A DNA stretch of 64,000 bases from an uncultured bacterium (GCA_903839725.1 CAIMDG010000001.1:3558-67557), one strand, 5' to 3'. Positions 19,056-63,416 are shown, counted from the stretch's first letter. The notes: generated by a model not told the origin, from the sequence alone. A program made the numbers and translations.

Positions 19056-19091
19056 TACAAAAAATGACCTCAAGGGTCATTTTTATGTGTA

Positions 19092-20282: not shown

Positions 20283-20478
20283 AAAGATAAGTTAAAAGTA
20301 AAAAGTTAAAAGGAGTGGCGTTCGTGCCACCTTAATTCTAATAGGACATTAAAAGTTCTACGGACGTACTCGACATGAAGGGGTAGGCCTTCTTTCTTGT
20401 ATGCACTGTATCATATCAAGTTATAGAAGGGGTGCAAGTCGATTTGGTCAATCAGAAGCTTGACAATATGTGGATATT

Positions 20479-20615: not shown

Positions 20616-20626
20616 TAGGACAGTAA

Positions 20627-45770: not shown

Positions 45771-45905
45771 GGAATAGAGGGATGTCGTAGTGATCTGTAT
45801 TCATCATAACAGAGTGGAGTGTATTTACACAGAATGATATAAAAAATAGCGCTACCGTGAGGCAGCGCTAGGAAGTGGGATACCACAATTTTGTTATTTC
45901 GACGG

Positions 45906-46142
45906 TCAGTTCTTTCTTGTTTTCGAGCGATGGAAGAACATTTCGAAGCCGACGACGGTGAGAAGTGAGATGAAACCTGCCCAATTGAGTAGTTTATCGA
46001 TATCACTTCCCGGACTTACACCTGGTGTAAGCTTGTAGCACAGGAAGAGCAGTGCAACGAAGCTCGGCAGCAGGATGAACAGACCAATCCGATTGATTAA
46101 TGTTGTTGGTTTCATATTAAATCCCATCAATACCTTCACCAA
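45906..46142 (-). CDS. Small hypothetical membrane protein (78 aa)
   Basis: Two TM helices. GC-rich operon context. Confidence 0.3.
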   Translation of the reverse strand: MVKVLMGFNMKPTTLINRIGLFILLPSFVALLFLCYKLTPGVSPGSDIDKLLNWAGFISLLTVVGFEMFFHRSKTRKN

Positions 46143-46629
46143 TCACTTCAAGTTGTTCCTTGAAGATTGCATAGAGAGACAATGGAGGTGTATCACTGGC
46201 TTGGTCGTCAAGACTTGTTTGTCTATGTTCGAGATACAGACTCCGTATCTTCCGTCGAGCTGCGTCGACGAGTTCGAAGTCTTCCAAGTAGTATTGCTCT
46301 CTGTGGAATTTGTTGGCCCATTTGGCATGCCACACTGACATCGGATCAGTGTCTATTTTTACCAATTCGACCCATCCACATTTGCATACCGTGAATGTAA
46401 GTTTGACTGGACGTCTGATGAACCAGCGCCATTTACCCGCAGGACTTCTATAGGAGATTGATTCGTCCTGCGGAAGAAGTATTTTGCAGACCCGTTTGAC
46501 GTCGATGCGGCCACAGGTTTTCTTGCGACACCGCCGAGCGACTTTCTTGTAAAAACGATGGATAGCCCAACAAACTACGAGGATAATGACAGCTATTACA
46601 CTGCCAATGATGGCAAAAAACGTATTCAT
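46117..46629 (-). CDS. Hypothetical membrane-anchored Cys-rich protein
   Basis: N-terminal TM followed by a Cys cluster CRKKTCGRIDVKRVCKIL. Confidence 0.35.
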   Translation of the reverse strand: MNTFFAIIGSVIAVIILVVCWAIHRFYKKVARRCRKKTCGRIDVKRVCKILLPQDESISYRSPAGKWRWFIRRPVKLTFTVCKCGWVELVKIDTDPMSVWHAKWANKFHREQYYLEDFELVDAARRKIRSLYLEHRQTSLDDQASDTPPLSLYAIFKEQLEVIGEGIDGI

Positions 46630-46766
46630 AATCTAACCGCAGTATATATCAAAGAGTCACGTAACGCACGTGCTGTAAACCCTCATGTAAAATGAGTAAT
46701 TGTGTAGTAAAAATGAATAAAAATCCCCGCCGGTAGCGTTGCTACAGGCGGGGGGCGATATTGCTT

Positions 46767-47984
46767 TCAGAATCTGATCCGGCGATAGCCAGACTGACTG
46801 CTGGCTCGCATGGCCCAACGGTTATCGTGCGGGGCGACGATCAGGGTTGAGCGGAGTTGACTCGGGTTTGGCATCCGAAGCAACCAACTCGTGTCCACAT
46901 ACATGCGCCCATCGTATTCACGAAAGACACTGTAATTCGGATGAGTGGACATGAGGACACCTTCCTTGGTCCACGGCCGATCCTGGAACACCTCATAGAG
47001 ATGCAGTGCCGGTTGGCTGTCATCAGTTTGACTCTTGGCGAACTGAACGAATGAGAGCCAATGAATCCACTCGCCGATTTTTTCCCCATTTGCCAAGACG
47101 AAACCGATTGGTTTTTCCTTGGGCTGCAATGAAGAAAGATAGAGGACACGTGACGGTCCCCCAGGAATGCCATAGTGGAGGAATTTTTTGGCATCCTTGG
47201 CGGACATAAGTCCGCTATCATTGAAATTTTCTTGGTAGCCAACTTTGCCGACATCTCCAAGAAACGTGACAAATCTCCGCATACCACCAACTTCGCCGAC
47301 CATGCTGGGGAAGGTGATTGTAGTGCCGTGCGTGAGCACATGTCCCAGATTGATGTTGTCTGGACGTTCATCCGGCAGTTTGATTTTTCTGTTGCCGGCA
47401 GCACAGGAAATCGAGAATTCCTGCGTGGTGTAGTTCACGATGATTGAGAAGATGGGAACACCTCGTCGGATGCAACTGATTGCAGACGTTGCTCCGCTGA
47501 TAGTTGCCGGGTTTCCATACTTTTTCTCCCACAAAGCCAATGTTTTTGGATTGCCGAGAATTTCCCCAATTTTTTTCTTAGGAGGGAATCCGGCAAGGAA
47601 AGCTTTGAGTTGGTTTGAGCGGTCCGTCGGATCGCTGATGAAGACAGTCCGGAACGATTGTGGGTCGTTCGGACGAAACGAATCATTGAAGCGGATGCTT
47701 TTCGAGCCTGCTTCTTCGGTCACCACGACGGCCCCGGCATCATATCGGCCGAGCGCTTCGCAGATGGTGATTTCCGGCGCTGCATCCATGCCGAGCGTGT
47801 CTTTCTTGCCATATTTACTGATCGGACGTAGTGCGTCTTCGACCGTTGAGTGCCGAAAGTCATAATAGGCCTTCAGCGCAGCTTCAATTGCTGCGTTTAA
47901 GTGGGCGATTTCTACACCTTGCATATTGGGGGTCTTTCTGGGTTTAGTGTGATGATATACCACACCAGATTCTTGTTTTGTCAA
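46767..47984 (-). CDS. Divergent inositol-monophosphatase/FBPase (FIG) superfamily phosphatase-like protein
   Basis: VVVTEEAG (cf. IITEESG) and FISDPTDRS (cf. DPLDGT) motifs. No clear WD..GG motif. Extra C-terminal domain. Confidence 0.35.
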   Translation of the reverse strand: MTKQESGVVYHHTKPRKTPNMQGVEIAHLNAAIEAALKAYYDFRHSTVEDALRPISKYGKKDTLGMDAAPEITICEALGRYDAGAVVVTEEAGSKSIRFNDSFRPNDPQSFRTVFISDPTDRSNQLKAFLAGFPPKKKIGEILGNPKTLALWEKKYGNPATISGATSAISCIRRGVPIFSIIVNYTTQEFSISCAAGNRKIKLPDERPDNINLGHVLTHGTTITFPSMVGEVGGMRRFVTFLGDVGKVGYQENFNDSGLMSAKDAKKFLHYGIPGGPSRVLYLSSLQPKEKPIGFVLANGEKIGEWIHWLSFVQFAKSQTDDSQPALHLYEVFQDRPWTKEGVLMSTHPNYSVFREYDGRMYVDTSWLLRMPNPSQLRSTLIVAPHDNRWAMRASSQSGYRRIRF

Positions 47985-48049: not shown

Positions 48050-48934
48050 CTACTTTTTCTGATCAAAATAGTCGAAAAGTGCCTTGATGCCCGAAAGGTT
48101 ACGCTCCCATTCGATAGAATTGTGAGTTTGGAGTTCTACGGTAATTGCAGGAATATTGATAGAAGCCAACCAGTCATCAGCGGCTCCTGTTGTTGAGTAT
48201 GCATCGAAAGATGTGTTGGAAGAATATTTTGAAGCCTTTGAATATGCATTCATAATATCGAGAGTAGTTGGAAGAATGCCGTGTAGACATTGAGAAGCAT
48301 AAATTGCATTTGACTGACTATGCCAGAAGATAACTGCATCTTGATGGACACGAGTCGTGAATGATTTGAGAGCTATGGATTCAGGTTCTGAAAAGGCAGT
48401 AGCTCCAGCACTGACTATTTTTGTTTGCCACGTGCTTTGTGGTTGCCATTTACAATCAAAGTTGCGATTGAGATCAACTGTATGTGCATTGAAACGACCT
48501 GATGCAAGGATTGTACTACTTGTTGATACGTCTGAGACTACAAAACGACCTTCTTTATTTGTTACTGCATACACTCCGTCCGGATTTGCTGCGGGAATGA
48601 TGGTAACAGTTATATTCTTTGGAATAGTATCTGGGTTTGCTTCGAGATAGTCCATGAATGTATATGCAAGAAGCACGCTATTCCATTCATAGCCACCATG
48701 AATACCACCAACAAAGAGGAGATGGGTTGCACCAGTGCCATACGAATATGCATCAATAGTGCGTCCTTGAAGAGATTTCCCAATGACCACATGTTGTGGT
48801 TCGAGTTGTGCAGGTTCAGTTTGTGTGACAGGTGGAGTCGAACTATGTAAACGTGTAAATACAATTACACTAATACAAAGTATAACGAGGATGATACCGA
48901 TAATAAAATATCGATTCGAGAGGGTAGATCGCAT
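48050..48934 (-). CDS. Secreted M14-family zinc carboxypeptidase-like protein (paralog 1)
   Basis: Signal/TM. GGIHGGYEWNS (HxxE-like zinc site), PAANPDG, DLNRNFDCKW. Confidence 0.65.
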   Translation of the reverse strand: MRSTLSNRYFIIGIILVILCISVIVFTRLHSSTPPVTQTEPAQLEPQHVVIGKSLQGRTIDAYSYGTGATHLLFVGGIHGGYEWNSVLLAYTFMDYLEANPDTIPKNITVTIIPAANPDGVYAVTNKEGRFVVSDVSTSSTILASGRFNAHTVDLNRNFDCKWQPQSTWQTKIVSAGATAFSEPESIALKSFTTRVHQDAVIFWHSQSNAIYASQCLHGILPTTLDIMNAYSKASKYSSNTSFDAYSTTGAADDWLASINIPAITVELQTHNSIEWERNLSGIKALFDYFDQKK

Positions 48935-48939
48935 ATGTA

Positions 48940-49857
48940 TTATTTACCGTAATAGGTAAGTAGTGCCTGGATACCTGCGAGATTTTTTGACCATTCTGTA
49001 TCTGTGTGATTGGTGAGGAGAACACTAATTGCAGGAATGCTATTCTTGGCAAGCCAATTTGTCATATCTCCGGTTGTTGCATAGAAATCAAAACTTTCAT
49101 TGGCAGAATATCCTGAAGCAGATGCATATTTCTTGGTGAGCGTATCTGTTTCTGTAGAAACACCAGTGTGACAATTTGAAGCATATACACCACCAGCCGC
49201 GCTATACCATACTACAACTGCAGCAGGTGAATGCATTTTGATATATGCTTGGATAGCCTGACTTTCTGGTTCAGAAAATGCTTTTGTACCACCACTTACT
49301 GTCTTGTTTTGCCATGTTCCTGATGATTTCCAGTCACAATCAAAGTTTCTGTTGAGATCAACGGTATTGGCATTGAAACGACCTGATACGACAGTGGCAT
49401 CATCTGTTGATACATCTGTTTGTGTGAAATTACCTGTTGTTGTGCCTACAACAGTATTGAGTCCGTCTGGGTTCAATACGGGAATAACAGTAACACTCAC
49501 ATTTGCAGGAATAATTTTGGAATTATTTTTCAAATAACTTATCAGTTGGTATGCAAGAAGAGACGTATTCCATTCATAGCCACCATGAACACCGGCAATA
49601 AAGAGAAGTTCTGTTGTACCAGTACCATAATGATATGCATTGATATCGCGATGTTCTACTGATGTTCCTATCTTCGTGATGGCACTATTTTTTTGTGCAA
49701 CTTGTTGTGTCGAAGTAGCTTTTGATACTGACGTAGTTACTGTAGTAGAAGTCGTATCTGATGTATCTACGGGTATTTGTGCGGGACTTTTAAAGATGAA
49801 ATAGAGGGCGATGATGACGATAACAATAATGCCTGATGTGATAATGGTTTTTTTCAT
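48940..49857 (-). CDS. Secreted M14-family zinc carboxypeptidase-like protein (paralog 2)
   Basis: AGVHGGYEWNT, PVLNPDG, DLNRNFDCDW. Tandem duplicate of 48050-48934. Confidence 0.65.
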   Translation of the reverse strand: MKKTIITSGIIVIVIIALYFIFKSPAQIPVDTSDTTSTTVTTSVSKATSTQQVAQKNSAITKIGTSVEHRDINAYHYGTGTTELLFIAGVHGGYEWNTSLLAYQLISYLKNNSKIIPANVSVTVIPVLNPDGLNTVVGTTTGNFTQTDVSTDDATVVSGRFNANTVDLNRNFDCDWKSSGTWQNKTVSGGTKAFSEPESQAIQAYIKMHSPAAVVVWYSAAGGVYASNCHTGVSTETDTLTKKYASASGYSANESFDFYATTGDMTNWLAKNSIPAISVLLTNHTDTEWSKNLAGIQALLTYYGK

Positions 49858-50386: not shown

Positions 50387-53300
50387 TTACTTTCGATGTT
50401 CCATGCACCAGGTTCTGGCGTTTTGGAACATACGGAGCCAAGGTGAAGCATCAAGACTGTGCCAGGATGATGGCATCCATGGCCATTGCCACAAACGGAA
50501 ACAACGTTCAGGGTGTGGCATCATCGCGAGATGACGACCATCTGGAGAGCAGAGCGCCGTGACACCGTCTGGCGAACCATTCGGGTTGTGCGGATACTCT
50601 TCAGTTATTGCACCGTGCGGGTCGATATACCGGAGAGGTGCAAGTCCCTTTCTGCTGACTTCCCGTTGCACTGATGCGTCGGGGTAGATGAGGCGACCTT
50701 CGCCGTGAGCGACCCAGACACCGAGTTTCGAACCTTCCATACCAGTGAGAAGTATTGATGGACTTGGCAGGATTTCTACCTGAGACCATCGGGATTCGAA
50801 CCGGCCGGAAGTGTTGTGAATGAAACGAGGTTGTTTGTCACCCTCGATACCTTTCCACGGAATCCATCCGAGCAGAGCCATAAGTTGGCAACCATTGCAG
50901 ACGCCGAGCGAGAATGTATCCTCGCGAGCGTAGAAACGGTCGAACATATCTTTCAGTTTTGAATTGAAGAGAATAGTTCCTGCCCAGCCTTTGGCGCTAT
51001 CGAATACGTCCATGTAGGAGAAGCCTCCTGCAAAGACGATGCCCTGGAATTGGTCCAGGCTGATCCTGCCTTCAATGAGGTCACTCATTGTGACGTCCCA
51101 TGAAGCAAAACCAGCAGCCGTGAATGCGGCCTGCATTTCCCGATCGCCGTTCGTGCCTTCTTCTCGAAGAACTGCGACCCGCGGTTTGTCTTGTGCGGAC
51201 ATGTGATCGGGAGAAGTGAATGTTGGGCTGAAGGTGATTGCGTATGACCCTGGAGAAGTGAGTCCAGGATAGCTCATCCGAACGAGCATACGCTCCTCGA
51301 TTGCCGATGAACGATTCATCTGCAATTTCTCGATCTCAAAACTGGTAGATTCCCACCAGGTTCTCAAATCGAGAATATCAGTGAATAATACACAGTCAGT
51401 TTTCGTCGAGACGGTGCACGTTTCCTGATTGAGAGTTTTCCCTATTACGAAGAAGGGAATCTTGTGTGATGTGCATATACCGAGAACACGCGTGACTGCA
51501 CTCGTTTTGAGTTCGATGACGAACCCAGCTTCTTCCGAAAATAATTCGGCGAGAGCTGAACGAGCATCGTTGACGTTGATGTCAAACCCGCATCGGCTGG
51601 CCATGCACATTTCGGCGACTGCGGTTATAAGACCGCCGTCACTGCGATCGTGCATTGCAAGGATGAGATCATTGTCGATCATTTCCTGCACCGCAAGGAA
51701 TGCGTTCAGGAGGAGGTTTGGATTATCAATGTCAGGCGATTCATTGCCTAGCTGATTGTATGCTTGGGCCAAAGCTGAACCGCCGAGGCGATTCTTGCCA
51801 AGACCAAGATCAATCAGACAGAGCAAGCTCTTGCCAGGCATTTTGATATCAGGCGTGACCTTCTTGGTAATTTTGGGCACTGGTGCGTAACCTAGCACGA
51901 CCAGTGATCCGGGAGTCTTTACGACTTCACCCTCAATATTCGCTGCCATCGAAAGGCTGTCTTTGCCTCCATCAACCGCTATGTCAAGTTCGATCATGAA
52001 ATCAGACATGGCTTGTGCGGCGTCATAGAGGAGAGCTCCTTCGTGGGGAAGTTTTGCGGGCCACATCCAGTTGGCGCGGCATCGGATGTCTCCGATATGA
52101 CTGATCTTGACTGAGGCCATATTGGTGAGCATTTCTGCCACCGCCATGCGAGCCCCTGCTTTGGGATCAATGAGCATCTTGATCGGCTGTTCGCCGATCG
52201 CTGAAGCAGTTCCGGTCAGACCGAAGTGACTTTGAGCATTGATGCTCACGTTACCAATCGGTATTTGGGCAATGCCACAACATTGTTGTTGCGCAACGAG
52301 CCCAGTAACACTCCGGTCAACTTTGTGCACGAGGAATCCTTTCGAACCGACGTGCGGAAGTTTGAAGACTGCTTCGATCGCTTCGGCTATTGTGATAGCC
52401 GGTAAATCCAAAGGCTTCAGAACCTCAGTCCGCCGTTGTGACGTGAATGTTTTCTGGGGCATATTTGTGAGAATTTGCTCCAGATTCAAGTCCACAGGCG
52501 TCTGCTGATTCGCGGGATCTTCGACGACAACTTTACCGCTGCCGGAAATACTCCCGAGAACTTCACAGTTCACTCGTTCCCGTGCACACATCGACTGAAA
52601 AACTTCGATATGTTCGGGCTTGATGAGAAGACCGTAGCCTTCTTGGAATTCAGCACTCCAGATCTTGAGGACTGACATTGTTTTGTCGCCGAGGACAATC
52701 TTGCGGATATTGATAGTTCCGCCTGATGGTTCGAGCAGTTCAGTGAGAACATTGCTCGGTCCACCGGCACCTTGATCATGGATGCTAGAAATAGGATTGT
52801 TGTCTCCCATTTCGACACAGGCCCGAATGACGCGATTGGCTTTGTTCTCCATCTCGGCGTTGCCGCGTTGAACGGAGTTGAAGTCGAGCGCTTCGGTGTT
52901 TTGACCTTGCATCATGCTTGAAGCACTACCGCCGCCGACCCCGATGGGGTATGCGGGACCTCCGATACGCACGATGAGCATTCCTACTGCAGGTGCGAGT
53001 TTGTCGAGGTGTTCGGAAAACAAATGTCCGACGCCACCACTGTAGAGGATAGGTTTTCGTGCTTCACGCCATTCTTTGCCGATAATTTGGCCAAATGTCC
53101 GAGTGAAGCCCAGTGTGAGCGGTTCACCGAATTGATTGCCATAGCTCGAAACGCCGTTGCTGCCTTCGATAAGAATCTTGAGCGGCGAAGCGTATGCCGA
53201 CGGTTTATTCTGGCCAGCAACTTCACCGGGTATTGTATGTCCCGGAATGAATAGGTTGCCGACAAAATATCCAGCGACGCCGATACCAGTGATGCCACCA

Positions 53301-54253
53301 CGACCGACTGCGGTATTGTCACGAATCCGTCCACCGGCGCCGGTTTGGGCACCAGGGAAAGGAGCGACGAATGTCGGGTGATTGTGGGTTTCTGCAGTGC
53401 AGGTGATATGAACCACCCTTGCTCGCACGCTCAACTCGGAAGGTTTTCCGGGTGTAAGTGGTTGCAATAGAAACGTGTGGAAACCAATGATGGCGCCGGC
53501 ATTGTCCCTGAAGGCAATGAGGCTGGCATTTGGTCCCGCACCAAGATTGGGGTGCAAGCGAACAAGTGATGCATTTCTCGAATATTCCAATGGTGCCTGA
53601 ACAATTTTGAACAAGGTCTTGTCCATCGGAGTTCCATCAATGACAATCCGGCCTTTGAAATACCAGTGCCGGCTATGTTCACTGTTCGCATTGCCGAGTT
53701 GAAAAAGTTCAACGTCGGTCGGATTGCGTTTGAGCAGATCCACGAAGAGTTGATGATAGTAGTCGATGTCTTTGACGTCCATGCCGAGGCCGAGTGTCTC
53801 GTTCACTTCTTGAAGGGCAGTTTTGCCGCGGCCGATGAGGTCGATAACCTTGGTCGGTTCGGGCAAGATGCCTGTGTCGAAGCTCGTGACGCCTTGTTGG
53901 TAGAATTGCTCCGTCATCTTGTCGAATGCGATTTTTGAAATCGCATCAGCGGACGTGCCGTTCATATCGATTCGACGACTACATTCAATGCGCACCACTT
54001 GCGTCAGTCCCATTGACCGACACATGGATACAGCATTCGAAGAAGAGGGAGTTTCGATCGAAAGGCGCGGGCCGATTTCGATGATATTCGAACCTGACAA
54101 AAATGGGGTATAGCGAACCATGTTTGGCTCAAATGTCTCTGCAATGAGCCAGTTGAGCTGAACCAATTGGTTGTCTGAAAGTGGACCTGTGGTTTCGATA
54201 TGGAAACCAGATTCAAGTCCTTCTGCATGTCGACGATATATGTTGTATATCAT
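50387..54253 (-). CDS. purL: Phosphoribosylformylglycinamidine synthase, large single-chain form (with C-terminal glutaminase domain)
   Basis: ~1290-aa protein. FGAM synthetase core. C-terminal GVCNGCQLMALLGWIP (type-1 GATase catalytic Cys). The ORF-track start 54379 is probably too long; MIYNIYRRHAEG at ~54253 fits the family N-terminus. Confidence 0.9.
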   Translation of the reverse strand: MIYNIYRRHAEGLESGFHIETTGPLSDNQLVQLNWLIAETFEPNMVRYTPFLSGSNIIEIGPRLSIETPSSSNAVSMCRSMGLTQVVRIECSRRIDMNGTSADAISKIAFDKMTEQFYQQGVTSFDTGILPEPTKVIDLIGRGKTALQEVNETLGLGMDVKDIDYYHQLFVDLLKRNPTDVELFQLGNANSEHSRHWYFKGRIVIDGTPMDKTLFKIVQAPLEYSRNASLVRLHPNLGAGPNASLIAFRDNAGAIIGFHTFLLQPLTPGKPSELSVRARVVHITCTAETHNHPTFVAPFPGAQTGAGGRIRDNTAVGRGGITGIGVAGYFVGNLFIPGHTIPGEVAGQNKPSAYASPLKILIEGSNGVSSYGNQFGEPLTLGFTRTFGQIIGKEWREARKPILYSGGVGHLFSEHLDKLAPAVGMLIVRIGGPAYPIGVGGGSASSMMQGQNTEALDFNSVQRGNAEMENKANRVIRACVEMGDNNPISSIHDQGAGGPSNVLTELLEPSGGTINIRKIVLGDKTMSVLKIWSAEFQEGYGLLIKPEHIEVFQSMCARERVNCEVLGSISGSGKVVVEDPANQQTPVDLNLEQILTNMPQKTFTSQRRTEVLKPLDLPAITIAEAIEAVFKLPHVGSKGFLVHKVDRSVTGLVAQQQCCGIAQIPIGNVSINAQSHFGLTGTASAIGEQPIKMLIDPKAGARMAVAEMLTNMASVKISHIGDIRCRANWMWPAKLPHEGALLYDAAQAMSDFMIELDIAVDGGKDSLSMAANIEGEVVKTPGSLVVLGYAPVPKITKKVTPDIKMPGKSLLCLIDLGLGKNRLGGSALAQAYNQLGNESPDIDNPNLLLNAFLAVQEMIDNDLILAMHDRSDGGLITAVAEMCMASRCGFDINVNDARSALAELFSEEAGFVIELKTSAVTRVLGICTSHKIPFFVIGKTLNQETCTVSTKTDCVLFTDILDLRTWWESTSFEIEKLQMNRSSAIEERMLVRMSYPGLTSPGSYAITFSPTFTSPDHMSAQDKPRVAVLREEGTNGDREMQAAFTAAGFASWDVTMSDLIEGRISLDQFQGIVFAGGFSYMDVFDSAKGWAGTILFNSKLKDMFDRFYAREDTFSLGVCNGCQLMALLGWIPWKGIEGDKQPRFIHNTSGRFESRWSQVEILPSPSILLTGMEGSKLGVWVAHGEGRLIYPDASVQREVSRKGLAPLRYIDPHGAITEEYPHNPNGSPDGVTALCSPDGRHLAMMPHPERCFRLWQWPWMPSSWHSLDASPWLRMFQNARTWCMEHRK

Positions 54254-54415
54254 AACAATTCTCTTTTGTTTCGGTTTGTGGCTTACAAAAAGCCATACAC
54301 CCAACGTGGGTGGTTTTCTAATGACAATACTACGCAGAAATCGTCTAATTGCAAGAATATGTTGTATAAAAAATCCCATCGTTCGTGAACGATGGGATGG
54401 TCTGCAAAAGCTGAA

Positions 54416-55093
54416 TTATTCGATGTCGCTCGAGTTGATCGCGTATCCGTGTGGACAGATGAGGGAATCAGGGTTTATTCCGTCCCAACTGATACGACCG
54501 TTGACCACCAGATTGGTGATACGTGGCTGATAATAGTGTTCAGCATCATTCACCCGATGCGCAAGCGATTCGGCGGTTTCGTCTTCGTTGATCTTGACCC
54601 GGTAATTCAGAAAGACCGGACCTTGATCGTATTCGGCGGTAACAAAGTGCATCGAAACAGCAGAGTGTGTGATTTCATGACGCTTGAAAGCGGCGATGAC
54701 TGCTTCGTGGACATGGTGTCCATACAATCCTGGCCCGCCAAATTGTGGCAACGGTCCCGGATGAATGTTGAAAACTGTTTTCGAATTGAAGTTGGTGGCC
54801 GGATCAAGTCCAGACACTTTCTTCAGCCAGCCAGAGAGGGCGCAGAAATCTGCTTCCCATATCTGTGCCCAGTGTTGGTATTCTTCACCGGTAAATGGTT
54901 GGTGAAAATACACGAAGGGAATATTGAGTTTGTCGGCCCGCTGCCGCACTCCTCCATGCTCATGGTTGGAAACGACAGCAACGATATTGGCATCGAGTGG
55001 TCCTCCACGTGATGCTGTGACCAATTGTTCAAAACCAGATCCACCACCAGTGGCGGAGCCAGATGCAAATACAAGGATTCGTGGCTTATTCAT
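54416..55093 (-). CDS. purN: Phosphoribosylglycinamide formyltransferase
   Basis: ILVFASGSATGGGSGFEQL, NIHPGPLPQFGG, and Asn/His/Asp catalytic pattern. Confidence 0.85.
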   Translation of the reverse strand: MNKPRILVFASGSATGGGSGFEQLVTASRGGPLDANIVAVVSNHEHGGVRQRADKLNIPFVYFHQPFTGEEYQHWAQIWEADFCALSGWLKKVSGLDPATNFNSKTVFNIHPGPLPQFGGPGLYGHHVHEAVIAAFKRHEITHSAVSMHFVTAEYDQGPVFLNYRVKINEDETAESLAHRVNDAEHYYQPRITNLVVNGRISWDGINPDSLICPHGYAINSSDIE

Positions 55094-55147
55094 AGATTTC
55101 AGTTTTTGAGTTTTTGTCTGTTGGGTAGTATCGGATAAAAGGTTGTT

Positions 55148-55165
55148 TTTTGCAACATGTTTTGC
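55148..55165. promoter_or_regulatory. Imperfect palindrome resembling a gammaproteobacterial PurR box in the purN-purM divergent region
   Basis: ttTTGCAACATGTTTTGCtg (cf. E. coli pur box GCAAACGTTTGC). Weak inference. Confidence 0.2.
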
Positions 55166-55213
55166 TGCTTGCCATTTAGCTATTAAATAGGTAGTTTAAA
55201 TTATGAAAGGTAG

Positions 55214-56383
55214 ATGGGAATTATCCCAAAATTGAAAATTATGAAAAAAAATGAAAAACCGATGACATATGCTGGTTCCGGCGTTGACTATGAAGCTATG
55301 GACCCGTTCAAACGAGCAGCTCAACTGGCAGGCTTAAGCACTGACAAATATGTGGAACGTTTCGGTTTCAAGGTCGTGCCGTGGACTCGGGGTGAGAGCG
55401 TCTTTTTGCTCGAAACCCCTTTGGGTTATTTGGGCCTTGTTATCGAGGGTCTCGGCACCAAAAGTTTAGTTGCTGATTCTCTTGCCGAGCTGGATGAATT
55501 GGCAGCTAAAATGGAGAGTCTTCTGGGCAAATCATTTTACGACAAGGTTGCGCAATGCAATGCAGCTATGGCCTTCAATGATCTCATTACGTTGGGCGCA
55601 TTGCCTTTGATTTATGGACAGTATATTGCTGTTCAAAATTCAGATTGGTTCAGCAATAAAAATCGTTCCATTGATTTAATTGAAGGAACAAGGAGAGCGT
55701 GTATGCTCGCACGTTGCACATGGGGCTGTGGTGAGACGCCGACACTTCGTGGCATCATCGTTCCTGGCACAGTTGATCTGGCAGGTGCAACTATCGGCAT
55801 CGTTCCTTCCAAGGATCGTTTGATTGATCCGGCCAATATCCGTCATGGTGATGCGATTGTCCTTATCGAAAGTTCCGGCATCCACGCCAACGGTTTGAGC
55901 ATGGCACGAGGACTTGCTGACCAATTGCCTGAAGGGTATCTTACATTGCTCAGCAACGGTAAGACGTATGGTGAGACACTGTTGGAGCCAACTCACATTT
56001 ATGTCAGTTTGGTGGAAGATTGTCTCAATCAAGGTGTAAAAATTCATTACACGGTCAATATTACCGGTCATGGTTGGCGCAAACTTATGCGTGCAAACCA
56101 GCCATTCACTTACGTCGTCGAACATCTGCCAACTCAACTTCCTATCTTCGATTTTGTTCAGCAACGTGGTCCGGTCGAGGATGAAGAAGCGTATGGGAAT
56201 CTTAATATGGGTGCCGGCTTTGCACTCTATGTTTCCCCTGATGATGTCGCGAACGTTATCAGGATCGCTGCGGAGCTTGGTTTCAAAGCCTTCCATGCCG
56301 GATACATTGAAGATGGCGATAAGAAAGTCATCATCGAACCCAAAGGTCTGGAATATGCAGGGAAAACCCTTGGGGTTCGTTGA
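55214..56383 (+). CDS. purM: Phosphoribosylformylglycinamidine cyclo-ligase (AIR synthetase); likely start ~55262 (MTYAGSGVDY)
   Basis: AGSGVDYEAM, GLGTKS and PurM-like AIRS N/C domains. Confidence 0.85.
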   Translation: MGIIPKLKIMKKNEKPMTYAGSGVDYEAMDPFKRAAQLAGLSTDKYVERFGFKVVPWTRGESVFLLETPLGYLGLVIEGLGTKSLVADSLAELDELAAKMESLLGKSFYDKVAQCNAAMAFNDLITLGALPLIYGQYIAVQNSDWFSNKNRSIDLIEGTRRACMLARCTWGCGETPTLRGIIVPGTVDLAGATIGIVPSKDRLIDPANIRHGDAIVLIESSGIHANGLSMARGLADQLPEGYLTLLSNGKTYGETLLEPTHIYVSLVEDCLNQGVKIHYTVNITGHGWRKLMRANQPFTYVVEHLPTQLPIFDFVQQRGPVEDEEAYGNLNMGAGFALYVSPDDVANVIRIAAELGFKAFHAGYIEDGDKKVIIEPKGLEYAGKTLGVR

Positions 56384-56536
56384 TTCCATGAAGTTGCGTT
56401 GATTCGCATCACAATTCAGTAACTCTCTGCCAGTGGCGGAGAGTTTTTTAATATGAAAAATCTATTGCTTACGAATATTGAAAATAAAAAATCCGCCCAG
56501 AGGTTCCGGGCGGATGCGTTCTGAAACAGTTCAGAT

Positions 56537-58159
56537 TTACTTGGTGCCGATCTTGGCCGGTTTGGCCTCAATCATCTTGGGCAGGAATTCATGGTGAACT
56601 GCCGCTCTGCAGGCGCCAAGAAATCCTTCGTGGCCGAAGTAAGCTTTGTCGTTCTCGTCGAGTTCGACAGGACTTCCCGGAAGACACTCAATCGAGAGCT
56701 GTGCCGCCAAGTTGTCTTTTTCGGTGGCACCTTCGAAGGCAACGCCAATCACAGGGATTTCGGGATGATCGAGCAAACAGAGTTCACTTTTCACGATTCC
56801 CGGCAAGGCTGCAGCCATTCCTGCACCAGCGATGACGATGTCAGCTTTGGTGAGGACGTCTTTGACAAACTTGCGGAGTTCGGTCGGATTCCGGTGGCAG
56901 CTGATGACACTGATATTTGCTGACGAGACACCGCCCAATAAGACCATTCCTTCGTGGACTTGTGGCAGATCGCTTTCGCTACCGACCACAATTTCGATTC
57001 GGCGTTTCGGAGCTTCGACATTGATGCCCAGTTTCTGACTTTGATATCTTTCGATCTGCATGTCGGTCAAACGCCAGGAAATATAGCGATAGATCCGGGT
57101 AGTCATGTCGATGACTGATGGCCAGACTTCGAGACCGTCCACAAATGCAAGGTCAGTCGGATTTTCTGGATCAAGTCCGTCGGTTACTCCGACACTTTTG
57201 CCCCATTCACGCACATGTTGCTTGTCGAATGAAGGAGGAAGTTTGCCTTTGGCTTGAGCCTTTGCCCAAGCTTTGGCATCCCAAAACCGGCTGGAGTCAG
57301 GTGTGCCTTTTTCGTCGGCGAGGATGATCTCACCACTACGAAACGTGTCCACGCTGAACTCGAACTTCGAGTCAGCCAAGATGATGCCGCATTTCGCTGC
57401 GTGCGCAGAGATTGCACCGGCAACTTGTAAGGACAACCGTTCACGTCTGGCACCGTCGCGTTTGGCCACGGTATCAGCTGGAATGCTTTTGTCATGCCCA
57501 ACAACAGCTTTTGTTGTTGGTGTGTAGAGAGGGTATGGAAGTTTGTTTCCATCAAACAACCCTTTCGGCAATGGATATTCGAAAGCCATGCCGTTTTCCT
57601 TGTAACTTTTCCAACCATTGCCGGTCAGATAGAGACGGACGATGTCTTCGATGTCAGGGGACGGAACGATACGAACCACGGCTGCCCGTTTTTGAAGTTC
57701 CGGATTATTCCACAGTGCCTCCGGCAAAAATTCATCGATGCGGGAGCCGGCGGCGATGAAGTCAGTTTGACAGATGCCGGGCAAAACTTGATTGGTCCAG
57801 AAATGATTCAACGCGGTCAGGATTTGACCCTTGAGAGGAATCAACGTTGGCAGGACGAAATCAAAGATGCTGCAGCGGTCAGAGGCGACGACGAGCATCT
57901 TGTCTTGATGTCCAGGCAATCCATATGAATCACGGACTTTGCCGCGATGGATAAGATTGAGGCCGGGAATGAGGGGTTGTTTCTCGATTACTGACGCAGG
58001 GATGTGAGGCATATGTTTCGGTATTTCATTGTTGGGTGCTTGCATATCTCGCCATGAGGTATGCACTAGTTTCAATACTACATGTATGTATAAAAAAGGC
58101 AAAGATATAAAAACCCCATCGCTCGCGAGCGATGGGGTGGTATGTGGTCGGTTGGTCAA
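56537..58159 (-). CDS. Bifunctional SAICAR synthetase (PurC, long/ADE1-like form) fused to an AIR carboxylase/PurE domain (PAICS-like order)
   Basis: N-terminus LIHRGKVRDSY...DRCSIFDF...TPDSSRFW (PurC). C-terminus IEIVVGSESDLPQV...ISCHRNP...IVIAGAGMAAALPGIV...IPVIGVAFEG (PurE). True start probably ~58045. Confidence 0.8.
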   Translation of the reverse strand: MTNRPHTTPSLASDGVFISLPFLYIHVVLKLVHTSWRDMQAPNNEIPKHMPHIPASVIEKQPLIPGLNLIHRGKVRDSYGLPGHQDKMLVVASDRCSIFDFVLPTLIPLKGQILTALNHFWTNQVLPGICQTDFIAAGSRIDEFLPEALWNNPELQKRAAVVRIVPSPDIEDIVRLYLTGNGWKSYKENGMAFEYPLPKGLFDGNKLPYPLYTPTTKAVVGHDKSIPADTVAKRDGARRERLSLQVAGAISAHAAKCGIILADSKFEFSVDTFRSGEIILADEKGTPDSSRFWDAKAWAKAQAKGKLPPSFDKQHVREWGKSVGVTDGLDPENPTDLAFVDGLEVWPSVIDMTTRIYRYISWRLTDMQIERYQSQKLGINVEAPKRRIEIVVGSESDLPQVHEGMVLLGGVSSANISVISCHRNPTELRKFVKDVLTKADIVIAGAGMAAALPGIVKSELCLLDHPEIPVIGVAFEGATEKDNLAAQLSIECLPGSPVELDENDKAYFGHEGFLGACRAAVHHEFLPKMIEAKPAKIGTK

Positions 58160-59754
58160 TTGACTGACCTCATGATTTCTTTGAGCTTCTGACGACCATG
58201 CTCAGGTATCTGCAGGTCATTCATGTCGAAGAAATACAAGCGCACCATTTGTGGAAATGTCATGATGCTTTCAATTTCCTCAGCATCCTTCGGACGTGCT
58301 TCTGCAAAGGTGCATGTCCTGTTGTTCTTACGAACGAGGAATTTGTGAACACCATTGCCAGTAACTGACTTGAAGGCGTCAATGATGACGACCATTGATG
58401 GGTCAGCATCGAATTCTCGGGCTCGCCTGGTTGCCGAAGCAACGTCAGGATATTCTTCAATCCGTGAATTTTCAAGATTGTGGAATCGTCCCATCATCGA
58501 ATAGGTGCCGAGCACCTCATCAATTTTGCGTTCGATCCAGTAATCCTGTTGTTCGAGGAGTTCCTTGAGAGTAACGAACTTATTCTCGTAAAGGTATTTC
58601 ACAACACCTTTACCGATCAGATATTCAAAGAATCGGCTATACGGGTTGTAATACAAGCCACGGAACATCAAGGCGCGAAGTTTGAGAAACTGAGAAACTC
58701 GGTCGATGTTTCCAAAGACCAGAGAACCTTTGCATAGTCTCGCGCTTTCCCAGAGAGCACATACATATGGATCATTGCTGACGATGTCGGCAACGGTGTA
58801 GAGGTTTGTGTTACGGGCATCTTTCTTCGCTCCCGTTCTCATGAGGTAAGCGTTCACATCGCGGGCTAAGTATGAACTTTTGTCCGCAACGTCGAGAATG
58901 CGTCCAAGCAAGCCCTCTCCGAGAATCGTTTTGACCAAGATGTCTCGATCAATGTTGAAACGCTGACGGTATTCTTCCCATACATCACCGACGAGTAGTT
59001 CTGGAAAGTGTGCGTCTTCGTCGAACATGGCAGGATCGATAAGTTTGACGGAATCACCACCAGCTGGGGTGAGTGCGTCGTGACTGATTCCTGCCGTGTT
59101 CACAATATTCGATGACTGTTCATCCAGCTTGATGTTTGTAGCAATAATATTTGCTACGGCGTGAACATCGAGCACGTGACAATAGCGGGTATGCTCGAAC
59201 ATGAGAGCGCCAACCGAACGGTCGTGCTCCTTGAGAACCGGATCATGCAAGAAGCTCAATTGCTTGATTCCCGAAAGACGATGAAGGTTGAAAACCTGTA
59301 TCGCATCGGACGCCATACCTGTATCAGGTAGAACATAGCCAAAACCCATGAAAGGGAATTTGGGCACTATCGCAAGCGGATCAGTTCCTTCAGTTATTGC
59401 ATAACTGTATCGGAGATATCTGCGAGCAAATGGTGGTAAAGCGTTCATCCAATACGGTTCATATTTTGTATCCAGTAAGTGGAATGGATCTTCGCGCGGA
59501 ATGAAGTGTGAACCAGAGTGGTTCATGGTGAGGTGTAGCATCTCAAGATTGAGTAAGCCAGACCTCCAATCACCCGAATTAAGAGTAGGAATTGTCTTTG
59601 ATTGCGCCAGCTTTTTGAACCAACGCTGTTTGGGCAACCACTTGGCCAATTTGCCAAGATCTTGCGGTCTCAAATTTTTGTTTGAGAGATACGCCACGTT
59701 TCCAACAATGGAAACACCAGCACCGTCATACATAGATTGTATGGAATGTCTCAT
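58156..59754 (-). CDS. HD-domain phosphohydrolase of the dGTPase/SAMHD1-like dNTP triphosphohydrolase type
   Basis: FNLHRLSGIKQLSF (cf. FQRLRYIKQLG), MFEHTRYCHVLDVH (cf. RFEHSLGV), AGISHDALTP (HD). Its stop overlaps the purC-E start region. Confidence 0.6.
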   Translation of the reverse strand: MRHSIQSMYDGAGVSIVGNVAYLSNKNLRPQDLGKLAKWLPKQRWFKKLAQSKTIPTLNSGDWRSGLLNLEMLHLTMNHSGSHFIPREDPFHLLDTKYEPYWMNALPPFARRYLRYSYAITEGTDPLAIVPKFPFMGFGYVLPDTGMASDAIQVFNLHRLSGIKQLSFLHDPVLKEHDRSVGALMFEHTRYCHVLDVHAVANIIATNIKLDEQSSNIVNTAGISHDALTPAGGDSVKLIDPAMFDEDAHFPELLVGDVWEEYRQRFNIDRDILVKTILGEGLLGRILDVADKSSYLARDVNAYLMRTGAKKDARNTNLYTVADIVSNDPYVCALWESARLCKGSLVFGNIDRVSQFLKLRALMFRGLYYNPYSRFFEYLIGKGVVKYLYENKFVTLKELLEQQDYWIERKIDEVLGTYSMMGRFHNLENSRIEEYPDVASATRRAREFDADPSMVVIIDAFKSVTGNGVHKFLVRKNNRTCTFAEARPKDAEEIESIMTFPQMVRLYFFDMNDLQIPEHGRQKLKEIMRSVN

Positions 59755-59906
59755 AATTTTATTTCAACTGTTTGTTTTCTATTTTGAAATTACATCAAAT
59801 ATCGCATATTGTCAAATTATTTTTTGATGTCAATGGTGTAAAAATTTAATATAAAATCGCTCAGAACTTTCGTTACTGGGCGACTGAATCGAATACGACT
59901 TTGAGA

Positions 59907-60650
59907 TTAGGCTTTGAGGCCGAGGACGTCTTGCATGGAATACAGGCCAGGTTCACGGTTGATGACCCACTGCGCAGCGCGTAATGCGCCGGTCGCAAAT
60001 GTGTCACGGCTAGTAGCCTTGTGTGCGAGTTCCACACGTTCGCCGGTATTGGCGAAGATGACTGTATGATCACCGACAACATCACCACCGCGAATGGCAT
60101 GAATGCCAATCTCATTGTGCGTGCGTTCGCCGGTGATACCCTGGCGACCGTGCCGGAGAGCATCCTTGAGTTGCAAATTGCGGACATTACCCAGAATTTC
60201 AAGCAGGGTAGTCGCTGTGCCACTTGGCGCATCTTTCTTGAGACGATGATGCATTTCGATGACTTCGAGATCGAAGTCCGGACCGAGAATTTCCGCGGCT
60301 TTGCGAGTGAGCCAGAAGAGAGTGTTCACACCAGTCGAGAAGTTTGTGGCTTTCACCATCGGAATCTTCTTCGTCTGGTCGATGATGAGCTTGTTTTCTT
60401 CCGCCGTATGGCCGGTGGTGCCGGTTACCAGAGGTTTGTTATTTTCGGCACACAGTTCCGCGATTCGCGGCGTGATGAGATGAGAGCTGAAATCAATCAC
60501 CAGATCGCAATCTCTGATAAAACCAGCATTTGCGAAATCGCTAGTTGCGTCATCAATACGCCAGGCAATCTCCATTTCAGGCGTTTTTGCCGCACATGCA
60601 CTGATCGCTTGTCCCATACGACCACTTGCCCCGACGAGTGTTATTTTCAT
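59907..60650 (-). CDS. dapB: 4-hydroxy-tetrahydrodipicolinate reductase
   Basis: MKITLVGASGRMG. EMHHRLKKDAPSGTA (cf. EAHHRHKVDAPSGTA). GERVELAHKATSRDTFA. Confidence 0.9.
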   Translation of the reverse strand: MKITLVGASGRMGQAISACAAKTPEMEIAWRIDDATSDFANAGFIRDCDLVIDFSSHLITPRIAELCAENNKPLVTGTTGHTAEENKLIIDQTKKIPMVKATNFSTGVNTLFWLTRKAAEILGPDFDLEVIEMHHRLKKDAPSGTATTLLEILGNVRNLQLKDALRHGRQGITGERTHNEIGIHAIRGGDVVGDHTVIFANTGERVELAHKATSRDTFATGALRAAQWVINREPGLYSMQDVLGLKA

Positions 60651-60818
60651 ACGTTTATTCTCCGAGTTAATGAGCTTATCACTGGTATGTGCTCAGTGTG
60701 TCGAGCTTTTGTTGTGGATGCAGTGACACATCCTATGTTTGAAATCTAGTCTTTTTCAGGGAAAAGTCAATGAAAAACCGCCAACAAACTGACGGTTAGT
60801 CATTTGGCTGGCGGTTGG

Positions 60819-61184
60819 TTATATCCGATGTATCCGCATTCTTTTGCCAACGTGTTTGATCACGTCAGCAAGGAAGCGTTCGTAGGAACGACGGATATTT
60901 GGCCCATAGCTGCGAGGTTTTTTTAAATCCAGTGCATGGTGTAATTCGCGCAGAGCTTCCATTGCACGATATTTCCAGGCGTTCGGGAAATATAAACTAT
61001 TCCTCAGGGCCTCCCGACGTTTGCTGATGATTTCGAGATGTGTGCCGTCAACTCCAGGGACATCCCATTTTTCTTTGCCGTCGAGAAAGTTGTGTAGGCG
61101 ATAGGGGTTTTTCTTTCGTGTGCTACTCCATCCATAAAGGAGTGCAACGACCTCTTCGGTGGTGAATGTGGCTTCTTTTTTCAT
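60819..61184 (-). CDS. Hypothetical basic protein (121 aa)
   Basis: Intact ORF. No motif. Confidence 0.3.
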   Translation of the reverse strand: MKKEATFTTEEVVALLYGWSSTRKKNPYRLHNFLDGKEKWDVPGVDGTHLEIISKRREALRNSLYFPNAWKYRAMEALRELHHALDLKKPRSYGPNIRRSYERFLADVIKHVGKRMRIHRI

Positions 61185-61358
61185 AAGTAGTATGTCAAAT
61201 AACTATTGTTATATATATATCATATATTATTGTATATGTCAAATACAATGAAGCTTATAATGTATATGTTGCAAGACTCCCAATACTTTCAAACACTCTT
61301 GAAAAAACAATAATACGTATGAGATAATATAATCATTATTATATAAACAATACGTATT

Positions 61359-61799
61359 ATGACTGAGTCGTTTGATGCATTAGATATGAATAGAAAGTCA
61401 TCGCGCGAAATAGCGGATGAATTTGTACCCGTGGAGGAGATTCCGGATACTGGACAATTAACTCCTCTTGAAGCATTGATTGCAAAAGAATCTCAAGAAC
61501 TAGAGGTAGAGCAAAATGAATCCGAAGAAGGTGTTGATCCTCATGATCTTACGAGAGCTCCTTCATACGTACTTAAGGATACCGATAGCATGGAACAATT
61601 TGCAGATGTGCCCGGAAGTGAAGTTCCTGACAGAACAGCAGAGATTGCAGAAGGAATTGATGGTATTTTGCTAAAAGGTAAAAAGACAGTTGTTGATAGG
61701 ATAAATCAAAGTCATGGTGTAAGAGGGAAAGTTCCTCCAAGCAAAAATCGTATGAGTCAAAAATTGAACAGTGTCGAAGGAAAACCTGGAAACAATTAA
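61359..61799 (+). CDS. Hypothetical acidic protein (146 aa)
   Basis: Intact ORF after a very AT-rich divergent intergenic region (61185-61358). Confidence 0.3.
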   Translation: MTESFDALDMNRKSSREIADEFVPVEEIPDTGQLTPLEALIAKESQELEVEQNESEEGVDPHDLTRAPSYVLKDTDSMEQFADVPGSEVPDRTAEIAEGIDGILLKGKKTVVDRINQSHGVRGKVPPSKNRMSQKLNSVEGKPGNN

Positions 61800-61926
61800 T
61801 ATACAAACAAAAATCGCTCAACACATTGCTGTTGAGCGATTTTTGTTGGGTAACATGATATTGATTTGCATGTACCCATGCACAAGGTATAGTTGAGAAG
61901 TCAGAGGACCTTGAAAATTAAAATCT

Positions 61927-63285
61927 ATGAACAATTATCCCAAACATTATTGTGGCATTTTCGGCATCAAAGGACAGCCGAAGGCGGCAGAATCGGTGTA
62001 TCGTGGGTTATTTGCTCTTCAACATCGCGGTGAAGAGAGTTGCGGTATTGTGAGTTGTGAACCTAGTGCTGAGAAGGTTTCTTTTTACGAGCACAAAGGC
62101 GTAGGACTCGTGTCGCAGGTTATTAGCGAAAGCGTTTTACGTATTCTGAAGGGTTCTATGGCCATCGGTCACAATCGTTACTCGACAACCGGGGGCACGG
62201 GGTTACAAAATGCTCAGCCTCTATCTATTCTCTACAAGAACGGGCGAATCGCTCTGGCTCATAATGGAAATCTTACCAATACGAATGCTTTGCGAACTCA
62301 GTTGGAGCAAAGCGGGGCAGTATTTTTGACAACGACAGACAGTGAAGTCATGTTGCACCTCATTGCCCGTTCGAATGGTTCAATCGAAGAAGCTATTCTC
62401 GACATGATGGATCAAGTCGAAGGGGCGTATTCGTTGGTTATCATGACCGAGGACAAATTGATCTGTGTGCGTGATCCACACGGGTTTCGACCTTTGTCAG
62501 TCGGCATCTTGAATGGTGCACAGATTGTGTCGAGCGAAACGTGTGCATTCGATATTCTCGGAGCACATTTTGTGAGGGATGTTGAACCTGGCGAAATCAT
62601 CGTTTTCAAAGACGGTGAAATTCAAACTCTTAAATCTCGCAAGAAAGCACCTAAAAGTTTGTGTTCATTTTGCGGAATTTACTTTGCGAAACCAGACAGC
62701 TATCTCGAAGGAAGAGACGTATATAGCCTTCGAATTGCCATGGGCAAGAAATTGGCCGAAGAACATCCTTCTATTCAAGCTGATATGGTAATCCCTATGC
62801 CTGATGGCGGTATTTGTGCCGCACTCGGGTATTCGAGAGCAACCGGTTTTCTTTACGAACCGATCCTCATTCGGAATCACTACATTGGGAGAAGTTTCAT
62901 TAAGCCCAGTCAACTCGAAAGACAGATTGCGGCAAACTTCAAACTTAATCTGATTGCAGGATTGGTCAAAGGGAAGCGAGTGGTTATCATCGATGACTCA
63001 ATCGTTCGTGGAGTTACCAGTCAAGCGCGGGTTAAAAAATTCAAAGAAGCCGGCGCGAGTTGGGTGGGTATGCTCATCAGTTGTCCTCCTCATAAACATC
63101 GGTGCCCTTATGGAATCGATTTTCCCGATCGGGAGGATCTCATTGCCAATCAACTGGACCTTGAAGGAATCAGGAAGACTCTCGGTCTTGATTATCTCGG
63201 GTATCTTTCAGAAGCCGGACTCATCGAAGTTCTGGGCGATGGTCACTGCTTGGCTTGCTTCAATGGCAAATACCCGGCAGGTTAA
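61927..63285 (+). CDS. purF: Amidophosphoribosyltransferase
   Basis: MNNYPKHY|CGIFGI has a propeptide before the catalytic Cys (Ntn). The PRTase motif VVIIDDSIVRGVTS is present. Confidence 0.9.
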   Translation: MNNYPKHYCGIFGIKGQPKAAESVYRGLFALQHRGEESCGIVSCEPSAEKVSFYEHKGVGLVSQVISESVLRILKGSMAIGHNRYSTTGGTGLQNAQPLSILYKNGRIALAHNGNLTNTNALRTQLEQSGAVFLTTTDSEVMLHLIARSNGSIEEAILDMMDQVEGAYSLVIMTEDKLICVRDPHGFRPLSVGILNGAQIVSSETCAFDILGAHFVRDVEPGEIIVFKDGEIQTLKSRKKAPKSLCSFCGIYFAKPDSYLEGRDVYSLRIAMGKKLAEEHPSIQADMVIPMPDGGICAALGYSRATGFLYEPILIRNHYIGRSFIKPSQLERQIAANFKLNLIAGLVKGKRVVIIDDSIVRGVTSQARVKKFKEAGASWVGMLISCPPHKHRCPYGIDFPDREDLIANQLDLEGIRKTLGLDYLGYLSEAGLIEVLGDGHCLACFNGKYPAG

Positions 63286-63416
63286 AAGTCGTCGCACATC
63301 TATCGTCAGTCAGTCTCTTGGCCGCCACTCAGTAGTGGTGGCCATTTTATTTGGTGTACAAAAAGAGGCAACGAAATGTTCGTTGCCTTGTAATGAGTTC
63401 AAATTAGCTGCTTCGA

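Follow-up and report, generated by a model that had tools for sequence, protein, structure and literature searches.

The 64,000-nucleotide stretch of DNA from an uncultured bacterium considered here (GCA_903839725.1 CAIMDG010000001.1:3558-67557; hereafter the window, with positions counted from its first letter) carries genes of de novo purine biosynthesis between positions 50,387 and 63,285, in a backbone resembling that of the Candidate Phyla Radiation (CPR). This raises the question of whether the block is a foreign island, as an earlier note on the same sequence had proposed, or belongs to the lineage in which it is found. The results presented below favour the latter: the block likely represents the resident, lineage-typical de novo purine genes of a Patescibacterium from a freshwater lake, of the Parcubacteria/Paceibacteria type. 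Among the genes of this bacterial, CPR-like backbone are those for a short PheS/PheT, GyrB, an extended TsaD, FtsZ/FtsA, type IV pili, GH130 enzymes and the nuclease SNase. Exact copies of window proteins are found on contigs of stratified-lake metagenomes, of which the longest measures 358,670 bp. The note had placed purF, purL, purN, purM and a PurC-PurE fusion at 50.4-63.3 kb in mixed orientation, which the list of open reading frames (ORFs) and profile searches against Pfam and NCBIfam confirm.

Distribution and neighbourhood of the purine genes

Homologues of PurL and of the PurC-PurE fusion form at least 120 clusters each, at 57-76% and 48-70% identity respectively, and all the named ones are from Patescibacteria. 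The names attached to these homologues and to those of HD532, a 532-residue HD-domain protein encoded in the same block, are Wildermuth-, Andersen-, Kaiser-, Buchanan-, Staskawicz-, Lipton- and Moranbacteria, Paceibacterota and Parcubacteria, with one HD532 match from Omnitrophica. No near-identical donor was found among 5.8 billion protein clusters, in which the best matches reach 76% (PurL), about 70% (PurC-PurE) and 78% (HD532) identity.

The gene order points in the same direction. The module formed by purM and the divergently oriented purN-purL recurs in two relatives (L090 and L091). In L090, S30AE and PF1765-like genes are located just upstream of purM, and their counterparts in the genome under study (64% and 46% identity, respectively) are found about 9 kb beyond purF. 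These shared flanks indicate that the purMNL module was present in this neighbourhood in the common ancestor. The 9-kb stretch, together with purF, dapB, the HD532 gene and purC-purE, would be either an insertion here or a loss in L090; it contains short hypothetical ORFs and a gene for a TrmB-family regulator, lying between purF and the PF1765-like/S30AE pair past the end of the window (L094, positions 11400-20650). The purC-purE gene occurs in several contexts in the relatives: alone on a 1-Mb contig, by guaA, by purB and a ribosomal operon, or by purB and purH. Hallmarks of mobility are missing from the block, as profile searches detected no integrase domain in it and no meaningful repeats flank it. 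No tRNA gene flanks it either, those of the window being found only at 12-15.5 kb.

Base composition of the block and of the backbone

The block had been described as an island of about 52-55% GC in an AT-rich genome. It is indeed GC-richer than the backbone, at 47.7% compared to 41.1% for positions 1-44 kb, while a GC content of 52% is attained in only 8% of its 1-kb windows (maximum 53%) and a backbone of about 41% GC is not strongly AT-rich. The comparison of GC, codon usage and tetranucleotides which the note had suggested does bring out a real contrast between coding sequences. The GC content at third codon positions (GC3) has a mean of 0.498 (0.44-0.55) for seven block genes and of 0.317 (0.24-0.39) for 25 backbone genes (Mann-Whitney p = 3e-7), the fraction of C-ending NNY codons is 0.50 in the block and 0.30 in the backbone, and CGG accounts for 0.17 and 0.01 of the arginine codons, respectively; two-fold NNR codons show no shift. 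Tetranucleotide z-scores of the block correlate at 0.26-0.40 with those of the backbone thirds, which correlate at 0.61-0.64 among themselves. The spacers are not enriched, with 36.2% GC for the ten in the block and 38.4% for 32 in the backbone. High GC3 is also observed outside the block, in a patch at 44.3-48.0 kb and in single genes at 8.6, 14.0 and 18.4 kb. Since the spacers are host-like and high-GC3 genes are scattered beyond the block, an explanation by region or by import is weakened; genes of two codon-usage classes are intermingled in this genome.

The same excess is found in relatives. The pur genes of three AT-rich ones (L089, L090 and L091) have a GC3 about 0.1-0.2 higher than their neighbours, and the HD gene, which in L092 and L093 is a lone gene within ordinary backbone, exceeds its neighbours by 0.12-0.14. 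This is not how a fresh island behaves, since the excess goes with gene families and has been maintained across long divergence. As part of the overall explanation favoured here, the raised GC3 is therefore likely to be a property of gene families across related genomes and no mark of recent import. Translational selection was considered as its cause and not adopted: the block uses more CGG, CCG and GCC but less CGT and GGT, unlike the usual pattern of highly expressed genes, and the ribosomal protein genes of relatives have no GC3 excess.

The second high-GC3 patch (44262-47984, minus strand; GC3 0.44-0.55) contains three genes, coding for a 502-residue protein with a weak match to NMO/TIM-barrel proteins, a 170-residue ORF with sub-threshold matches to short membrane-protein families, and a 405-residue protein without family match, in which a FISDPTDRS motif, seen by eye, is reminiscent of inositol monophosphatases. 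The isolated genes (8639-9694, 14024-15010 and 18369-19025, all on the plus strand; GC3 0.51-0.59) have no Pfam or NCBIfam match and lie in low-GC3 backbone. Between the second patch and the pur block are tandem paralogues of an M14 zinc carboxypeptidase (48050-49857, minus strand), which share a 174-nucleotide stretch of 71% identity and have a backbone-like GC3.

Identity of the enzymes and transcription units

The largest gene, purL (50387..54253, minus strand), codes for a large single-chain formylglycinamidine ribonucleotide (FGAM) synthase of 1288 residues. Its Pfam architecture (FGAR-AT_N, linker, two AIRS_C, PurM_N-like and GATase_5) includes all five domains of formylglycinamide ribonucleotide amidotransferases, and it reaches the equivalog score of TIGR01735 (1490 bits, cutoff 1123). 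The closest relatives, at 76% identity, are from Patescibacteria. Salmonella PurL (lgPurL, PDB ID: 1T3T) matches it with 844 bits and the 1369-residue chain of PDB entry 9N9W, from its length perhaps a eukaryotic FGAM synthase, with 1166 bits. The ORF runs to 54379 (1330 residues), but the extension from 54253 to 54379 is probably not translated: other gene callers chose the 1288-residue start, and a hairpin (54398-54373) falls inside the longer ORF. The equivalog score is also reached by PurF (61927..63285, plus strand), the amidophosphoribosyltransferase, with 436 bits against TIGR01134 (cutoff 350). Its translation shows MNNYPKHY-CGIFG and ...GHCLACFNGKYP, with a short propeptide preceding Cys9 and a CxxC at the C-terminus, which we take as signs of an iron-sulfur type PurF.

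The scores of the others are lower than the curated NCBIfam cutoffs: 91 for PurN (TIGR00639, cutoff 150), 172 for PurM (TIGR00878, cutoff 236), 230 for PurC (cutoff 251) and 46 for PurE (cutoff 150). Judging from their sequences, these are divergent members of the families and not non-members, since their best PDB matches are the enzymes of the same name and the catalytic residues of PurN align. PurN (54416..55093, minus strand; 225 residues), a divergent glycinamide ribonucleotide (GAR) formyltransferase with a match to Formyl_trans_N (4e-20), has only GAR transformylases as best PDB matches; the aligned catalytic residues are Asn-His (in NIHPGPLP) and Asp (in YDQGP). With its syntenic counterpart in L090 it shares 76% identity. 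The purM gene (55214..56383, plus strand), transcribed divergently from purN, codes for an aminoimidazole ribonucleotide (AIR) synthetase with AIRS and AIRS_C domains and PDB matches to PurM down to 8e-31. Its true start is likely Met17, at 55262, because the alignment with the PurM of L090 begins there. These two syntenic PurM proteins (7988-9064, minus strand, in L090) share only 37% identity, compared to 76% for the adjoining PurN and PurL, which would reflect either very fast evolution of PurM or its replacement in place.

Terminator-like hairpins are more numerous in the window than in shuffled sequences (28, compared to 14.1 ± 4.1). Within and around the block they are found at 50367-50342, 54398-54373, 56421-56445, 56515-56491, 58138-58113 and 63319-63344; the third and fourth form a convergent pair between purM and purC-purE (56421..56515). 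Since strong hairpins of this kind follow nearly every gene, including purL, purN, the HD532 gene and purF, the block is composed of separate transcription units and is not an operon. A perfect 18-bp inverted repeat with a 6-nucleotide loop (61806-61847), located between a 146-residue ORF and purF, could be a terminator or an operator. A search for purine and ZTP riboswitches and other RNAs returned three tRNAs only. Compared with the de novo purine genes of Salmonella and E. coli, the enzyme families are the same, and solved enzymes named PurM, PurC and PurE are matched by their counterparts in the block; here, however, the genes are in separate transcription units with no pur operon, PurC and PurE are fused, and purD, purB, purH and purK are missing from the cluster.

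Completeness of the pathway

By family membership, the six enzymes would cover steps 1, 3, 4, 5, 6 and 7 of the pathway; the steps are assigned from family and structure matches, from which we infer catalysis. PurF would form phosphoribosylamine, PurN would formylate GAR, the single-chain PurL would yield FGAM, and PurM would close the ring to give AIR. The C-terminal, class-I-like PurE domain of the fusion would then convert AIR or N5-carboxyaminoimidazole ribonucleotide (N5-CAIR) to carboxyaminoimidazole ribonucleotide (CAIR), which may be passed directly to the N-terminal PurC domain for ligation of aspartate, giving phosphoribosylaminoimidazole-succinocarboxamide (SAICAR). Each gene would be transcribed separately and have its own terminator.

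As previously noted, purD, purH, purB and purK are not seen: neither the window nor the adjoining 10 kb or so at each end contains them. With a PurD query, tblastn found no match in 14 sequences, and no ATP-grasp (PurK) gene is present in the window or in the neighbourhoods of about 20 kb of nine relatives. In the relatives, purB adjoins purC-purE or purL, while purH and guaA adjoin purC-purE. The pathway is probably complete, because purB and purH are found at other loci in relatives, and purD, purB and purH may likewise lie elsewhere on this chromosome. In anoxic lake water rich in CO2, the cell may do without PurK; for methanogens living at high CO2, it is accepted that a class I PurE works in the absence of PurK (PMC3261824). 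The statement that CPR genomes usually lack de novo purine synthesis was too strong: in one survey, the complete inosine monophosphate (IMP) module was present in 32% of 399 metagenome-assembled CPR genomes (PMC11608272), so that a purine pathway in such a genome is unremarkable. The secreted thermonuclease mentioned in the note as consistent with scavenging is indeed encoded in the window (SNase, 16230-16772). Its gene overlaps a downstream ORF for a PemK/MazF-type toxin by about 40 nucleotides (16230-17151, plus strand).

The PurC-PurE fusion

The fusion gene (56537..58012, minus strand) codes for 491 residues, with matches to SAICAR_synt (3e-47) and AIRC (2e-14). The ORF extends to a TTG at 58159, and the two Pfam domains cover its residues 70-323 and 388-494. 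Homologues begin with MxHIP, corresponding to Met50 of the ORF, which places the start at 58012, and the terminator at 58138-58113 is upstream of it. The PurC domain (approximately 57023-58012, minus strand) forms the N-terminal half and the PurE-like domain (approximately 56540-57001, minus strand) the C-terminal half, and the AlphaFold2 model (mean predicted local distance difference test, pLDDT, 90.7) has two domains.

The fusion had been likened to animal PAICS. The order is the same in the animal enzyme (PDB IDs: 2H31, 6YB8 and 4JA0), with SAICAR synthetase at the N-terminus and the PurE fold at the C-terminus, and this part of the comparison stands. Foldseek aligns the two over both domains (486 columns), with 15-17% identity and a root mean square deviation (rmsd) of about 15 Å, meaning that the domain arrangement does not superpose, and no PAICS chain was found at E ≤ 0.001 in a phmmer search with the fusion. 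The presumed benefit, handing CAIR from site to site, may be shared. Animal PAICS has a class II PurE, while the PurE of the fusion has the class I motifs SCHRNP and AGAGMAAALPG. The corresponding loop motifs of class II enzymes are SAHK and AGRSNGLG. Yeast Ade1 and Mycobacterium PurC are the nearest matches of the PurC half, at 33-35% identity and a target-normalised template modelling (TM) score of about 0.8.

The note had proposed to classify the PurE domain, and the outcome is class-I-like: the 34 PDB sequence matches consist entirely of class I N5-CAIR mutases, with no class II enzyme or PAICS among them. Its fold is that of the class I enzymes (1O4V, 3LP6, 2YWX, 1QCZ and 2FW1, the latter from A. 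aceti), with 27-36% identity and an rmsd of about 2 Å over some 137 of 160 residues, and the GSxSD phosphate loop and the His-Arg of the 40s loop are common to both. G355, S356, D359, S382, H384 and R385 are invariant, or nearly so, among 30 aligned homologues of the domain. There are also differences. The Ala of the 40s loop is replaced by Cys, and the conserved His of the 70s loop (AGGAAHLPG) is replaced by Ala in the fusion and by Gln in some homologues, the loop reading AGAGxAA(A/Q)LPG across the 30 homologues, whose other motifs are GSxSD and SCHRN(P). A six-residue insertion precedes the IPVIGV strand, and the C-terminal third is divergent, with Pfam and TIGRFAM covering about 100 of 150 positions. 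In addition, the domain is joined to PurC, with no PurK nearby.

An exhaustive search with the PurE-like domain gave 32 representatives at E ≤ 1e-30, mostly fusions of about 490 residues. Two metagenomic proteins have the reverse order, with the PurE-like domain first and PurC second (P0440, 455 residues, and P0469, 505 residues), which indicates that PurC and PurE were fused more than once; stand-alone PurEs with the SCHRNP and AA(A/Q)LPG motifs also occur (P0384 and P0390). Scanning the genome collection with the PurC-PurE alignment yielded only non-CPR purC genes at 35-44% identity, the result being dominated by the universal PurC motif. Two apparent non-CPR fusions, in a member of the Clostridia (L007) and one of the Solirubrobacteraceae (L046), were rejected as adjacent separate genes, purE-purC and purD-purC respectively. 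A literature search for a link between CPR and a PurC-PurE fusion or PAICS found nothing. Given the low identity, the class I PurE motifs and the PurC of Ade1/mycobacterial type, the fusion is independent of PAICS and convergent with it, and only the domain order is shared. A more tentative proposal, which we hold to be possible without considering it probable, is that it represents an independently evolved counterpart of PAICS, in which a class-I-type PurE scaffold lacking the 70s-loop His would carboxylate AIR without PurK and channel CAIR to PurC.

Alternative explanations

The abrupt change in composition near 50.3 kb could reflect an error of assembly or binning by which the pur genes of a GC-richer organism were joined to a CPR backbone, a possibility also raised in the note. 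It is contradicted by five loci, taken from different ENA assemblies and from Logan assemblies of single runs, which are 99.98-100% identical to the window across their overlaps, both edges of the block included, the assemblies of different runs being identical across 48.1-64.0 kb and beyond. Moreover, GyrB, FtsZ and the pur genes are located together on one 358,670-bp contig, and the low-GC3 gene for the 146-residue ORF (61359..61799, plus strand; GC3 0.25, backbone-like) is interleaved in the block together with host-like spacers. A chimera is thus excluded for practical purposes. The main inference of the note, a recent island from a donor outside the CPR, would agree with the higher GC and the distinct oligonucleotide signature. 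The composition deviates from that of the host for coding sequence only and not for spacers, the nearest homologues are within the lineage, and the purMNL module is in a syntenic position in L090. Every named close homologue is from Patescibacteria; within the searches run, the PurC-PurE architecture is seen only in Patescibacteria and in unnamed metagenome proteins; synteny with a relative is conserved; and integrase, tRNA and direct repeats were not found at the block. Together with the recurrence of the GC3 excess, this leaves horizontal acquisition of an island unsupported, and we regard such an origin as very improbable.

As regards the cause of the raised GC3, the main competing explanation is recurrent replacement by genes of GC-richer Patescibacteria. 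The pur genes, dapB, the HD gene and other high-GC3 genes would have been repeatedly replaced by, or acquired from, GC-richer members of the phylum, with homologous replacement keeping the synteny and importing the codon usage of the donor. Horizontal gene transfer among Patescibacteria has been reported (PMC12455944), and this scenario would account for codon usage and a tetranucleotide signature unlike those of the backbone, for the patchy distribution of high-GC3 genes, many of which are unknown or accessory, and for the difference between PurM and PurN/PurL in the comparison with L090 (37% versus 76%), which is compatible with replacement in place. GC-richer relatives with a backbone-matching purC-purE exist, and one of them (L087, GC3 of about 0.64) has the closest PurC-PurE, at about 70% identity. 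However, the best matches are only at 70-78%, a distance at which synonymous sites should be saturated and have drifted to the composition of the host; the spacers of the block are host-like, the same GC3 excess is found in several genomes in different chromosomal contexts, and mobility genes were not found. Such exchange is therefore rather unlikely, although clearly less so than an import from outside the CPR. A different question is whether the pathway is truly partial, serving to make AIR or SAICAR only (e.g. for the pyrimidine of thiamine) or depending on a partner for GAR and the steps after SAICAR. The absence of purD, purB, purH and purK from the window and its flanks, the lack of a PurD-like sequence among the 14 searched with tblastn and the presence of a nuclease suited to scavenging would all fit, but the sequence in view amounts to about 84 kb, out of at least 359 kb for the contig; in relatives that share the fusion and purL, both purB and purH are found nearby; and a 1288-residue PurL and five other intact enzymes are unlikely to be kept for a dead end. 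We consider a partial pathway improbable. Several observations do weigh against a resident and functional set of purine genes: the coding composition of the block is truly aberrant, with a GC3 about 0.18 higher, a CGG excess and low tetranucleotide correlations (0.26-0.40); purC-purE shows no GC3 contrast in four GC-richer relatives, and such genomes could be donors; no purD, purB, purH or purK was found in the part of this genome covered; PurN, PurM, PurC and especially PurE are under the curated NCBIfam cutoffs, so that their activity is only deduced; and where class I PurE has its conserved 70s-loop His, the fusion has Ala. Even so, the suggestion which the note had kept in reserve, that the organism is less reduced than the rest of the window suggests, fits the evidence best, and a resident set of purine genes is what we consider likely.

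Neighbouring genes of the block

The note had left out four genes of the same block: dapB, the HD gene and two small ORFs. The HD532 gene (58156..59754, minus strand) codes for a phosphohydrolase of 532 residues, predicted from its fold and metal residues to be similar to the SAMHD1/EF1143 deoxynucleoside triphosphate triphosphohydrolases (dNTPases). It has no match in Pfam and NCBIfam at default thresholds; its family comprises about 80 homologue clusters, mostly from CPR, some of which match PF01966, and H193, H225-D226 and D291 are invariant. With the AlphaFold2 model (pLDDT 90.3), Foldseek finds 2HEK, 2O6I/4LRL and SAMHD1 with E-values from 1e-9 to 1e-7. The H...HD...D metal site is common to HD532 and to SAMHD1, EF1143 and Aquifex O67745, with a fold probability of 1.0 and target-normalised TM-scores of 0.5-0.7, at 10-17% identity. 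Unlike these enzymes, HD532 has some 125 additional residues at the N-terminus and an alpha/beta domain at the C-terminus, and an invariant TPAGGD takes the place of their GHxPFSH after the HD. The model thus suggests a dNTPase-like HD protein, probably an unrelated neighbour outside the purine pathway; it is not found beside pur genes in relatives. Its ORF overlaps the long purC-purE ORF by 4 nucleotides, which suggested translational coupling and a role as a missing pur enzyme. This was rejected, since the protein is dNTPase-like and unlinked to pur genes in relatives, and a terminator precedes the real start of purC-purE.

The dapB gene (59907..60650, minus strand), coding for 4-hydroxy-tetrahydrodipicolinate reductase, has DapB_N and DapB_C domains and scores above the cutoff for TIGR00036 (243 bits). 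It is a non-purine gene within the block, and its GC3 is equally high (0.54). Neither of the small ORFs has a family match; the one of 121 residues (60819..61184, minus strand) is also called as a gene in independent assemblies, and the other is the 146-residue ORF discussed above.

Implications

The block is likely an ordinary cluster typical of its lineage, the curiosities of which are modest: the PurE variant of the fusion and the gene-linked GC3 excess. A PurC-PurE fusion occurring phylum-wide, with a modified class-I-type PurE and no PurK seen, may deserve follow-up, as may a codon-level GC excess which follows gene families across genomes of different base composition. If the tentative proposal made for the fusion is true, a PurK-free enzyme of this kind would let small-genome bacteria make IMP by a ten-step route like that of animals, with a saving of ATP. 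Purine synthesis genes in a member of the CPR need not be a foreign island; this group of Patescibacteria at least carries its own conserved purine genes, and may need hosts for nucleotides less than often assumed.

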